In this document: one piece after another, positions 4,118 through 13,706 of the stretch | Numbering within the stretch: the first letter of the stretch is position 1 | How the letters are laid out: every line of letters begins with the position of its first letter | Assembly (NCBI GenBank): GCA_963818965.1 | Contig: CAWFUG010000008.1 | Location: 1-64,000 of the forward strand | Source of the DNA: an uncultured Verrucomicrobiae bacterium | GTDB lineage: Bacteria > Chlamydiota > Chlamydiia > Chlamydiales > Rhabdochlamydiaceae | Length of the DNA stretch: 64,000 bases | Direction: 5' to 3' | Made by a program: the position numbers and the translations under genes | Notes under the pieces: model-generated | The model's database searches: none | Told to the model about the DNA's origin: nothing | The model's input: the letters and a program-made list of their open reading frames with translations, nothing else

Positions 4118-5459
4118 TTAGCTTCTCGCTTCCAATACCAAGCCTAGAGCTGGATTGGTGTTGTGATCGACAATTTGCTGAGTGGATGGATCCACAGCAA
4201 GTTCTTCGAATTGGTCGCTTGTCATGTCTGACCAGTTAACTCCATTATACGACACTTCTTTGGATGAGGGCCAAATACTCTCTGGGCATGCGACTAACTG
4301 GACAAAGTATTGAGATGCGCCTAGGAACGAATCCGGATTCATGTGAACTTGTGGTCCAGCTGAACCATCTGGACTTCCTTGTAGATAGAGGCCAACACCG
4401 GCATTGTTAATGACGTTAATCTCTGTGCTTACTACTGGGCTTACCAAATCTACAGACTGGGGACTACTGAAATAGATCGCGTAAGTCGAGCTTACGGTGT
4501 CATAGGAAATCGTGTTGAAGTCTACTGTGTAGGAATTAACTGATGTGGAGCTCGATTCATCGATTTGGAGTGCAGCAGGGTTATTTTGTAAGTTATTGTT
4601 CCTTACTACTGCGTTATTGCAATTGTTCAGATAGATGCCATTGTCATTATCCATGATCTGATTGTTTTCAACCACTACGCCAGGTGCGCTAAAAATTAAA
4701 ATTCCCGAACATGCCTGACTTGAGGGATTCGTTAAATTCGTGACAACGTTGTTTGTTAGAGTCCCTGTAGATCCATCGATAGTTCTATCCCATTGGGATT
4801 AGCCTCTACGTTGGTTCCGGTAATCACGTTACCCTTGACTGTAGCTGTCAGGCCTGTGCCAATGAGTAATACACCTTGTTCTGAAAATGGTCTAAAACGA
4901 CGTCTTCGACTACAAGGGTATTCGTGCCAGTGTCATTAGCTCCCAATATTGCCGTTCCTTCTTGATATCCTGTCGGTTCTGTGCTTTCTAAGATATTCAG
5001 AACATGAATATTAGCAATAGTACCGCTAGAGTTATGATAACCCACACCTGTGAAACCTTGTACAGTTCCAAAGACGCTTTGATCTCTTCCGTCGACTGTC
5101 AAATTTTTAATGACGACATCTGTAGCACCTTCAATAAGAATAACTGGGGTGTAAGTTCTAGCGGTCGGACCCGTATAGTTAAATGTGGTTGTCAAATTTG
5201 ACGTATCTGGAGACTGGATAATTGTCGTATTCATCCCTTCACCAACTAGGGTTAAATTCTTGTTGATGGTCAATTGATTTGTTAAGGCAAAAGTTCCCGC
5301 CTCCACTTTAACTGTGCCCCCGACGCTTACCGAGTTAATGGCTGCTTGGATATCTCCTCCTGGAGGGACTACAATCGTATTTGCATGCAATGAGGCAGAC
5401 ATACAAATGCCTAATAAAACGCCTCCTGACAGGTTTTTGATCTTGTTCATAGATATCAT
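4118..5459 (-). CDS. Exported parallel beta-helix (pectin lyase-like/NosD) protein lacking the shared C-terminal domain; frameshifted
   Basis: Signal peptide ..SLHA, GGDIQAAIN start-of-helix motif and Asn-rich coils. Close paralog of 5711-7594. ORFs 4848-5459 and 4118-4675 are joined by shifted codons. Confidence 0.8.
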
Positions 5460-5475
5460 CTTTCATCTCCTTTTG

Positions 5476-5714
5476 TTAGAATTTATAACCCAAGCTAAGG
5501 CCAGGGGTAAATCCCCCGATGTCTTGCCGGGATTTAAAAGATGCGGGTTGATAGAGGTAGTCTTTACAGCAAGTCCTACAGCAAATTTGGAAACATGCTT
5601 AGAAACGTAGGGAGATTTATTCTTGAGCCAAACGAACGCAAAGTTCGGTCCTAAGCCAACGTAAGACCGTAGCCACCCTTTGAAGAATAATGCAATAGCG
5701 CTAGACTTATTCAT
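5476..5714 (-). pseudogene. Internally deleted paralog of the small outer-membrane beta-barrel
   Basis: YVGLGPNFAFVWL..KFAVGLAVK, then in a shifted frame DYLYQPASFKSRQDIGGFTPGLSLGYKF*. These match segments of 7799-8366. ATGA overlap with the upstream gene. Confidence 0.7.
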
Positions 5715-11119: not shown

Positions 11120-11179
11120 TTAATCCTCTTATGTTAGTGTTCATTTCATTTAAAATCAGATGCCAAATTTTCCTGGCAA

Positions 11180-13706
11180 CTAATCGTTAATAATCGTTAT
11201 AGGAACAGGTTGGCTCGCTATATTGACAGAGTTAATAGCCACTATTTCATAATTTATGTTGGATCTTTTGGAGTTAAGGCAGGTTTTAAAAACTAATTTT
11301 GAGCCTGCAGGAATCGTATCGACTAGAATTCCATTTTTATAAATCTGATATGAAATAATGTCGGGAGAGGGACTAGGATCCCAATGTGCAATGAGGATAT
11401 ATTCCGTCCTGTCTAAAATTGTTCTTTTTAATCACTCCAATAAAATTGGAAGGAGGAAGTACCGGTTGTATTAGAAGCGTAAAAGTTTGAGTAGCATCGG
11501 GTGAAAGGCCATTGTTTGCAGTAATAGTAATGATAAATACTCCAACTGTATTAGGATAGGCGTGCCGGAAAGGGTCGCTGTTCCATCCCCATTATCGACA
11601 AATGTGATGCCGGAAGGTAGGGTGCCGATTTCAGTAATCGTGGGATTCGGAAATCCACTTGTTGTCACAGTAAAGCTAGAAAACTCACCCACTTCGAAAG
11701 AGGCTTCGTTGGCCGAAGTAATCTGTGGAGGAACACCAAATCCTAAAGCTTGGGTATCGTCATAAACATCTGAGAAGGAATATCGACTCCTCCAAACAAA
11801 ATCATTTGACCACTCGATAGGATTAAATACAAAGGCAGGAAATTCCCTGGCTCCAGGGGGATTTATAGGATTTAATTGCGTCCAACTATTCGATTTGCCA
11901 TCATAGGCCCAAGTCTCGTTATATGTGCCGGTTAGAAACCCCCCACCGAATAATATCAGTTGGCCACTGGCGGGATCAAATTTCATTCCATAGCCATAGC
12001 GGATTGAAGGCGGACTTGGAGGGGAATAAGTCTATCCAAGTATACGTATTGGTTAGTTTGATCAAAAGTAAATCCCCATGTGTCATTGAGAGGAGTTCCG
12101 CCTGAATTGCTATAGCCGCCAAACAAAATCAACTGCCCACTAGATAATCAAAAGCCATGGAAGCAGAATCTCTCGCCGGTGGGAACCGATAGTGGTTAAT
12201 TGAGTCCAAGTATTTGCATGTGCATCATATGCCCAGTGTCATTAAAGTCACATTAGCTCGTCAAATCCCGCCAAACAAAATTAGTACGTCCGCTGCATTG
12301 ATCAAATCAATAGCAGCCCATTTCGAGCTGCAGGTGAGGTAGGAGGAGTCACATTTGTCCATGTATTGCTTGAGGAGTCATATGACCATGTATCTCCCAA
12401 ATATGCCACCGGGGCCATGGCCAGCCAAACAAAATGATTTTCCCACTCGAAGGATCAAATTCCATCGGGCAGAATTTCGGGCAGAGGAGAATTAATGGAA
12501 AAATTCAGTCCATAAGTTTTTTGTGACATCATATGCCCAAGTATCGTTTAAATAGGTTCCCCCCTCATGGGTAATACCCCCAAACAAAATCATACGGCCA
12601 GTGGGGATCAAAGGTAAAGCAGGGACTAAATCGAGCCGAGGGGGATGAGGGGTTAAAATTATCTTCCAAAATAATACTGCATTTGAAGGGAGTCCAAAAG
12701 CCCACGTATCGTTAAGATCACCATTATTTCCTGCTCCTCCGAATAAAATGATCTGACCGCTGCTGAGGGTCAAAGTTCATCGTTGCACCGTATCGTGCTG
12801 GTGGAGAGGTAGGAAGGGTCATTTTTGCCCATGTATTGGCATTGTCTCTTGCATCGAATCCCCATGTGTCGTTTAACAAGCTGTTATTGCCTTACCCCCA
12901 AAAAAAGCATTCAGACCATTGACTGATTAAAGGCCATGATGGCGCTGTATCTAGGTTCAGGAGAACTAGAGGGATTAAATTTTGTCCACGTATTGGCATT
13001 GTCGTGGGGGTTGAATGCCCAGCTGTCGTTCAGCAATCCACTGGGGCCCTTTCCTCCAAATAAAAACATTTGACCGTTGCATGGATTAAAGTCCATCGAA
13101 GCCCCTAAAGGGCAGAAGGAGGATTGGCTGGATGTCAAGTTTATCCAGTATTCGCATTGACGTGGCATCAAATGCCCAAGTGTCATTAAAATAACTGCTT
13201 CCATTATAACCCCCAAAAAGAATCAATTGCCCGCTGCTCGCATCATAGTCCATAGCAGCCCCATATCGAGCAGAAGGTGAGGAGGGAGGGGTTAATTCTG
13301 TCCACATATTGGCGATGATCAAAGACCCAGGTATCGCCAAGCTGCGTGCCATTATTATAGCCTCCAAACAAAATGATAATTCCCCTACTTTGATCAAAGA
13401 CCATACTCGCTTTTTCTCTAGCAGAAGGAGAAATAGGGGGAGTTAATTCTGTCCATGAATTAGTTGAACTATCAAATACCCACGTGTCACCTAGGCTGAT
13501 GCCATTATGTGAGCCTCCAAATAAAACGATTTGCCCGCTGCTAGGATCAAAAGCCTGCGAAGAAAATTCCCTTGGGGAAGGAGGGTTTAACGAATTTAAA
13601 TCTGTCCAATTAAATGGAAGAGTGTTTGCTGTGATCTGGCTGACAAAAAAAATGAAAACTATAAGGAGAAATTTTAGATAGACTCTTTTTTTTTTAACCC
13701 TAACAT
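11180..13706 (-). CDS. Exported Kelch-repeat protein 1 (~12 repeats) + He_PIG Ig domain + shared C-terminal domain; heavily frameshifted
   Basis: Tandem paralog of 8579-11119. GGAGG plus ATG at 13706. Tail VLPPSNFIGVIKKN..HWDPSPS..SQPVPITIIND*. Confidence 0.8.

Follow-up and report, generated by a model that had tools for sequence, protein, structure and literature searches.

The window analysed here comprises the first 64,000 nucleotides (nt) of contig CAWFUG010000008.1, forward strand, in an uncultured Rhabdochlamydiaceae genome (assembly GCA_963818965.1, in which this contig is referred to below as C8). On its minus strand, between positions 4118 and 13761, it carries six co-oriented genes in the order Kelch1, Kelch2, barrel, beta-helix with TIG domain, barrel remnant and beta-helix. 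An earlier reading of this DNA, hereafter the original prediction, had proposed an export or surface-display system in which unrelated passenger proteins share a C-terminal domain (CTD) and are interleaved with small beta-barrels. Kelch1 (11183-13761) codes for a signal peptide, Kelch repeats (Pfam Kelch families, E 5e-17), an Ig-like segment and an Fn3-like CTD (about 11183-11480), called the tail in the following. Kelch2 (8582-11144, with its ATG at 11144) has a signal peptide, Kelch repeats and a tail, of which the main part lies at 8582-8830 and the first strand in another frame. Both genes are tandem duplicates with 74% DNA identity; an intact relative of 847 amino acids (aa), P0006, is encoded at another locus (L081), in which the barrel stands ahead of two Kelch genes. 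A small outer-membrane barrel of an 8-strand family is encoded 212 nt downstream of Kelch2 (7803-8366). Broken in the assembly, it nevertheless spans the full family length, possesses a signal peptide and is recognised in two pieces by the hidden Markov model (HMM) of the family (E 3e-26 and 2e-14).

Beta-helix 1 (5711-7594) consists of a signal peptide, a right-handed beta-helix (Pfam Beta_helix, E 4e-14), a TIG/IPT domain (TIG, E 9e-8) and a tail (about 5714-6012). Its TGA stop codon and the ATG with which the barrel remnant begins form an overlapping ATGA junction (5711-5714): the minus strand reads CAATGAATAAG at 5716-5706, which corresponds to Q-stop for the tail gene and to M-N-K for the remnant. 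The remnant (5466-5714) has kept this M-N-K start, a short leader and only the profile positions about 97-138, positions about 155-182 following in another frame (5479-5565), whereas the first half and an internal piece have been deleted. An independent contig, X1, is identical to the window over 5545-5724 (0 differences), ATGA junction included, and agrees exactly with the letters that span the internal deletion; the second barrel is a genuine remnant. Beta-helix 2 (4118-5459), a paralog of beta-helix 1 with a Pfam beta-helix match, breaks off ahead of the TIG domain and lacks a tail.

The N-termini of all four passengers look like Sec-type signal peptides, as judged by eye, and no autotransporter family was matched at E<=0.01 on any of the 13 window pieces searched with Pfam. 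The tails of Kelch1, Kelch2 and beta-helix 1 represent one common domain of about 95 aa, with pairwise identities of 41-67% (tblastn) and HMM E-values down to 2e-35. The original prediction had described the order and orientation of the six genes, the Sec-type signal peptides, the adhesin-like folds (recognised by Pfam as Kelch, beta-helix and TIG), the lack of a terminal autotransporter barrel, the ~95-aa domain common to three of the four passengers, the ATGA overlap of the deleted barrel with a tail gene and the frameshifts; all of these were confirmed, the frameshifts amounting in our analysis to at least 39 breaks in five genes. The succession passenger-passenger-barrel-passenger-barrel was found again in another genome (L079) and therefore the arrangement is not due to chance.

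The tail reaches the cut-off of no Pfam or NCBIfam model, and NCBIfam remained silent at E<=1. A profile derived from seven tails was searched against 1.84 billion representative proteins. It matched 15,073 proteins, the best of which are long and display 4 to 33 tandem matches at profile positions about 30-95, and Pfam fn3 (PF00041) was present in four of five sampled matches. The structure predicted for the tail from 23 sequences (predicted local distance difference test, pLDDT, 93) is an Fn3 sandwich. VIA-align superimposed it on 2w1n with a Z-score of 11.1 and a root mean square deviation of 3.1 over 94 aligned residues, and the top 50 rows were nearly all Fn3, while Foldseek against the PDB gave nothing at E<=0.001. 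The seven-strand Fn3 fold is thus found in the model, in the Z-score and in the profile relatives. Because most of its sampled profile relatives carry fn3, its model is an Fn3 sandwich and its structural matches are of the same type, the tail belongs to the Fn3 domains as a divergent member, marked by a first hairpin specific to its family, and is not a novel fold. A word-index search with the tail returned itself and P0006, nothing else. The likeness to the Fn3 domains of bacterial secreted enzymes and adhesins is one of fold, the tail profile finding tandem Fn3 proteins. Unlike these domains, the tail always occupies the terminal position, carries a conserved motif in its A-B hairpin that is used in the docking modelled below, and leaves the Pfam fn3 model silent at E<=1. 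At one locus of the window's genome (L004, C9:37987-43552), three adjoining genes for repeat proteins of about 540 aa end in an Fn3-like tail with no barrel near; this type of tail protein forms tandem arrays in many genomes, also in genomes without a barrel match.

For the barrel, 15 of 19 relatives were aligned together with P0002, the intact paralog on contig C7; the short or partial P0008, P0010, P0021 and P0023 were excluded. The model obtained from these 16 sequences (pLDDT 87.6) shows eight strands closed into a barrel and joined by three short turns and four longer loops; its two termini face the same side and its last residue is aromatic, as in the OmpA/OmpX-like fold. The turns on the terminal side are 2-4 residues long. 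Similar structures are the OmpA transmembrane domain, OmpX, NspA, Ail and OmpW (TM score 0.72-0.80, Foldseek E down to 4e-9). The Pfam cut-offs were not reached (Opacity, 15.4 bits for 21; OMP_b-brl, 14.3 for 28.7), so that the barrel is a member of the OMP_b-brl clan at the level of fold only; NCBIfam gave no match above cut-off either. The nearest Atlas clusters are generic OMP_b-brl, with nothing further. Where relatives are named in their source they are hypothetical proteins, one of them from a Rhabdochlamydiaceae metagenome-assembled genome, and a search for related loci with a single barrel protein yielded just two irrelevant loci in other phyla. The likeness to the small outer-membrane proteins (OMPs) of this clan thus lies in the fold, the closing aromatic residue and the nearest clusters, whereas the family differs by scores below the Pfam cut-offs, by conserved loop motifs of its own (FRxIYG and DYLYQ) and by an obligatorily coupled partner gene; to our knowledge, such a coupling has not been described for small 8-stranded OMP families. 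The loops are better conserved (0.42-0.53) than the periplasmic turns (0.24-0.32). Some barrels carry N-terminal extensions of 40-150 residues (L069:3208-3987 on C9, strongly acidic; L026, L028 and L041) which, owing to their N-terminal position, would lie in the periplasm.

The distribution of both families was examined in 401 genomes sampled phylum-wide, one of which was unscorable. In the remaining 400, the barrel is present in 196 and the tail in 206; both occur in 175, the barrel only in 21, the tail only in 31 and neither in 173. The window's own family (89 genomes) is itself split into 49 genomes with both, 1 with the barrel only, 11 with the tail only and 28 with neither, and therefore the co-occurrence does not only reflect a deep lineage split; one family of 29 genomes has neither tail nor barrel. 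Adjacency was analysed by an HMM scan of the 30 best-barrel and the 30 best-tail loci, each with 1.5 kb on either side. A tail-ending frame was found directly upstream on the same strand at 17 of the 30 barrel loci (best match per genome) and nearby in another orientation at three more; among the 30 tail loci, a barrel follows immediately downstream in eight. The co-occurrence and adjacency that the original prediction implied were thus recovered across the phylum, and its concern that the domain might often be internal or cytoplasmic was answered by its position, since the tail ends within 7 residues of the stop codon in 51 of 53 full tail matches.

The junction between the two genes was compared in 21 distinct co-oriented pairs with a placeable ATG, L033 and L044 (no ATG) and repeats of the same place having been dropped. 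Fourteen of these pairs share an 8-nt gene overlap within ATGAATAA, in which the tail gene ends in x-E-stop and the barrel gene starts with M-N-K. The others have a 20-nt overlap (one pair), gaps of 0-15 nt (five pairs) or a gap of 606 nt (one pair). When the pairwise identities of the tails are compared with those of the barrels over 21 pairs, the two matrices are correlated with r=0.80, a value reached by none of 5000 permutations. No third gene family recurred in more than two of 15 loci fetched with about 6 kb per side. These results establish the association of the tail and barrel genes, their overlap, the terminal position of the tail and the folds of both partners; the tail-barrel link is real and old. 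The window's genome contains five intact barrels; it has intact canonical tail-barrel pairs on contigs C5 and C9, one divergent pair on C11 and two orphan barrels, as well as several tail proteins without a barrel, among which an intact beta-helix+TIG+tail protein on C1.

To model the two partners together, a canonical pair was taken from one genome belonging to the same family, with barrel residues 15-181 (167 residues) and a tail of 107 residues; the alignments contained 23 rows each, namely the 21 cognate pairs and two rows from the window's genome. The interface score ipSAE, which is the model's own confidence and not a measurement, was 0.80, 0.81 and 0.81 in three runs, the best of three controls giving 0.00. 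Of 157 solved complexes, 116 attain the score mark of this complex, as against 2 of 215 mismatched pairs; these counts hold only roughly here because our own alignments were used. There are 52-54 contacts, with a partner pLDDT of 84-85 and at least 90% contact agreement between runs. On the tail, the interface is made of residues 25-34 and 36, which form the A-B hairpin with the motif KKNxFLNxT, and of residues 73-75; on the barrel, all four loops L1-L4 (33-38, 72-81, 115-126 and 162-166) are engaged. These loops lie opposite both barrel termini, and in the usual OMP topology the side opposite the termini is the outer face, so that the interface is probably on the cell surface. The binding of the tail to the barrel and the residues involved are thus predictions of a structure model. 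As judged by eye, the predicted contact segment of many type I tails contains a cysteine (K-T-C), and one or two cysteines occur in loop 3 of many partner barrels; a disulfide link between tail and barrel, as in the chlamydial outer-membrane complexes, is a possibility.

The explanation that we favour, with moderate confidence, is that of a modular anchor in which the Fn3 tail would plug into the barrel and hold varied passengers on the cell. The locus would then be made up of copies of a module of two genes, common among environmental Chlamydiota. The first gene would encode a Sec-exported passenger that ends in the divergent Fn3 domain and is either a Kelch propeller, a protein of the beta-helix+TIG type or a different beta-propeller or repeat protein; the second, translationally coupled, would encode the outer-membrane barrel with its eight strands and OmpA/OmpX-like fold. 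The tail is predicted to insert the hairpin joining its strands one and two (consensus KKNxFLNxT) into the crown of the four barrel loops, and the barrel would act as a membrane dock for interchangeable passengers. One barrel could serve several tail proteins, encoded beside it or elsewhere, and tail proteins without an adjoining barrel might use one from elsewhere or, as the 31 tail-only genomes suggest, need none. In this model, the passengers are probably held at the cell surface; we infer this orientation, as well as a route of the folded passengers across the outer membrane.

Besides the limits of the complex score given above, several observations weigh against the anchor. Shared descent inflates both the co-occurrence and the matrix correlation, related genomes not being independent. 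No tail gene was detected near 10 of the 30 barrel loci (one of them cut by the contig end), and 22 of the 30 tail loci, many of which are tandem tail proteins of about 530 aa, have no barrel within 1.5 kb. Some tail-only genomes have strong matches (E about 1e-25) and are near-complete, e.g. G132; it follows from the tail-only genomes that at least the ~530-aa tail-protein family can exist without a barrel. The expectation of an interface more conserved than the rest was not borne out, either for the barrel (0.51 vs 0.49) or for the tail (0.54 vs 0.52). The anchor does not account for the route of a folded propeller across the outer membrane. Finally, in the window itself, the five genes other than the remnant require at least 39 frame changes or stop read-throughs to be read end to end.

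Part of these observations would also suit operon partners that do not bind each other directly, the barrel being an ordinary small OMP (structural, or an OmpX/Ail-like adhesin) merely co-expressed with a passenger in which the tail is a spacer or stability domain. Fn3 is indeed a common terminal module and the proteins found with the tail profile are mostly tandem Fn3 arrays; to this are added the tails and barrels standing alone and a predicted interface conserved no more than its surroundings. We nevertheless consider the absence of binding improbable, in view of an 8-nt overlap kept across families, a strictly terminal tail, a family hairpin motif which is exactly what the model inserts into the barrel, complex controls scoring 0.00 and barrel loops more conserved than the turns. 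If the complex does form, the passengers could still stay in the periplasm, hung from the outer membrane as an envelope scaffold. Such a tether would agree with the lack of an outer-membrane translocator encoded with the module in the 15 wider loci, with folded Kelch propellers that cannot pass an 8-strand barrel, and with the long N-terminal, hence periplasmic, extensions of some barrels such as the acidic one on C9. It is hardly compatible with an interface modelled on the four long loops opposite both termini, the outer face according to the usual rule for OMPs, nor with terminal-side turns of just 2-4 residues, and we regard it as quite improbable.

The original prediction had left two roles for the barrel, the tail docking on it or being exported through it; the docking is sustained by the structure model, whereas export appears unlikely because the closed 8-strand fold is too narrow for a polypeptide. 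A barrel acting as an export channel, or as a type V-like translocator with the beta-barrel assembly machinery (BAM), the passenger crossing through or alongside it during assembly, is brought to mind by the passenger-then-barrel order, the tight coupling and the lack of another dedicated partner, which recall split autotransporters and two-partner systems. However, the barrel has eight strands instead of 12 or 16, no POTRA, autotransporter or ShlB match was obtained on the module proteins, and the tail is predicted to fold alone as a complete Fn3 domain. Moreover, no passenger-fused form occurs among the 150 listed genome matches, in which the longest open frame is 349 aa; looking for longer relatives of the barrel also gave nothing, a result of little weight. 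We hold this export role to be highly improbable. A wider version of the anchor, which we put forward as speculation and judge unlikely, would be a new chlamydial envelope system of 8-strand 'socket' barrels with a plug-in Fn3 tag, by which passengers could be exchanged, duplicated and shared. In its bolder form, capture of the tail by the barrel at the time of BAM-dependent assembly would also carry the passenger to the surface. The pair would then be a minimal device for secretion and display, split over two genes and without relation to types V, IX or XI.

A last alternative concerns the window only, in which the six genes could be a dead, decaying copy of the module, made of true pseudogenes instead of assembly artefacts. 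A pseudogene island was first considered, given the long open frames elsewhere in the window: the breaks, at least 14 in Kelch1, 15 in Kelch2, 3 in the barrel, 5 in beta-helix 1 and 2 in beta-helix 2, are concentrated in 8.9 kb, whereas long open frames cover positions 18-64 kb. The remnant deletions upheld by the independent contig, the loss of the TIG domain and tail in beta-helix 2 and the presence of an intact paralogous barrel on C7 point in the same direction. The breaks were checked in short near-identical contigs of other public peat and soil metagenome runs, which contain 5-8% of the sampled words of the stretch and leave most of Kelch1, Kelch2 and the first barrel uncovered. An extra base was present in mismatch-free contigs at the break sites 4778 (two runs), 4878 (two runs) and 6379 (one run). 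With the bases at 4778 and 4878, beta-helix 2 becomes a single open frame with a length of 448 aa; three other runs in all supplied the contigs that lack these breaks. The break of beta-helix 1 near 6379 is missing in an independent contig. A further extra base, at 12466, was set aside: its source contig had 4 mismatches and the frame was not lengthened. Three of the four checkable break sites are thus absent from near-identical DNA of other samples, and many of the window breaks may therefore be assembly errors.

The comparison of the window barrel with its C7 paralog P0002 (93% DNA identity, 5 frame-breaking indels) gave a dN/dS ratio of 0.30, which also speaks against decay. Furthermore, when the genome is divided into 443 bins of five kb, open reading frames (ORFs) are scarce in only 5, each of them near a contig end, and the window is the start of contig C8. 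At one such end, C11:810-15000 is an inverted copy of the adjoining C11:11924-26345, with 80.6% identity over 14.9 kb and nearly no long ORFs. This start of C11 looks like a fold-back assembly artefact of a typical kind, indicating poor quality at the contig ends of this assembly. The first reading as a pseudogene island is weakened by these four lines of evidence, i.e. the contig bases, the dN/dS ratio, the ORF-poor contig ends and the C11 fold-back, and we regard a dead module copy as possible but doubtful. The copy in the window is either poorly assembled or partly decayed.

Some further features were noted at and around the locus. Metatranscriptome contigs X2 and X5, from two studies, tile beta-helix 2 near-completely (4117-5464) with 0-1 mismatches per contig, and match elsewhere in the 9.7-kb stretch just two short pieces (41 and 45 nt, with 1 and 3 mismatches). 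They give a weak hint that beta-helix 2 is transcribed in peat; DNA carry-over could also explain them. The window segment 31-18000 is related to C7:58.6-69.4 kb by five collinear blocks of 79-93% identity, parted by the Kelch and beta-helix genes, none of which is found on C7, and the position of the barrel differs. A broken gene of the GT10 fucosyltransferase family lies at 13859-14971, its C7 paralog (L002:1855-3003) being intact, with 383 aa and 83% DNA identity. Short repeats of about 57-62 nt (3915-3971 and 3974-4033) have copies 89-93% identical on C7, C11, C12 and at C8:108236, and a direct tandem repeat of 230 nt (2661-2890 and 2914-3143) shows 89% identity.

The two linked families occur in about half of the 400 sampled genomes of the phylum, each in several copies per genome, and the interface proposed for them is concrete and testable. 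If it holds, it would explain how varied adhesin-like proteins (Kelch, beta-helix, propellers) are mounted on the chlamydial surface and would provide a sequence tag for the prediction of surface proteomes.

Among the known systems, type Va secretion relies on a fused C-terminal barrel of 12 strands, and type Vb on a 16-strand TpsB with POTRA domains encoded beside TpsA. The module resembles type V by its Sec-exported adhesin-like passengers genetically tied to an outer-membrane barrel and by its self-contained character, whereas its barrel is a separate 8-strand polypeptide without POTRA. No Autotransporter match was obtained on P0001-P0004 at E<=1, setting the module apart from type Va; likewise, the module proteins gave no ShlB or TPS-domain match and the 15 wider loci no third gene, which distinguishes it from type Vb. 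In the window's genome, the sole ShlB/TpsB-type transporter gene found at E<=0.001 (L067, C11:307988-308953, E 1.6e-24, in a frame of 571 aa) is unrelated to the window locus. A GspD-type (type II) secretin is also present and has no established link to the module. Concerning Slam and type XI, no DUF560 was seen in general Pfam scans of the module and no lipobox by eye, no search having been aimed at Slam itself. The original prediction had noticed no type IX secretion system (T9SS) or TpsB gene in the window. This stands for the neighbourhood, no such partner recurring in the 15 wider loci, but not for the whole genome, in view of the ShlB/TpsB-type gene on C11. As for T9SS components, PorP_SprF (PF11751), the one searched for, had no match in the window's genome (87.85% complete) nor in 14 control genomes. 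P0001 and P0004 gave no match to a type A or B sorting domain in NCBIfam at E<=1, a collection which presumably holds models of these domains.

No description of the pairing of tail and barrel was found in the open-access literature or bioRxiv, and the relevant passages of Heinz et al. 2009 (PMC2811131) do not mention the module. It appears to be a widespread envelope device of environmental chlamydiae that has so far escaped description, and its function is proposed from genomics and one controlled structure prediction. The closest functional parallel would be the type B CTD of the T9SS with its cognate PorP/SprF-like barrel. According to the passages of PMC9143113 dealing with them, type B CTDs are found on varied secreted proteins of Bacteroidota, with the cognate barrel gene beside the cargo gene (sprB and sprF). 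The same passages describe PorP/SprF-like barrels as T9SS-dependent members of the FadL family with 14 strands and several paralogs per genome, which bind the CTD and anchor the cargo on the surface. As far as these passages go, the module shares with this system varied passengers, a common C-terminal domain, an adjoining barrel gene and paralogous barrels, the anchoring being here a predicted one. It differs by an OmpA/OmpX-like barrel of 8 strands in place of the 14-strand FadL type, by an Fn3 tail, by its host phylum Chlamydiota, by genes overlapping by 8 nt and by the lack of a linked translocon in the 15 loci. If the interface holds, the Fn3 tail and the OmpX-like barrel would represent an added anchoring principle, convergent with that of the type B CTD and PorP.

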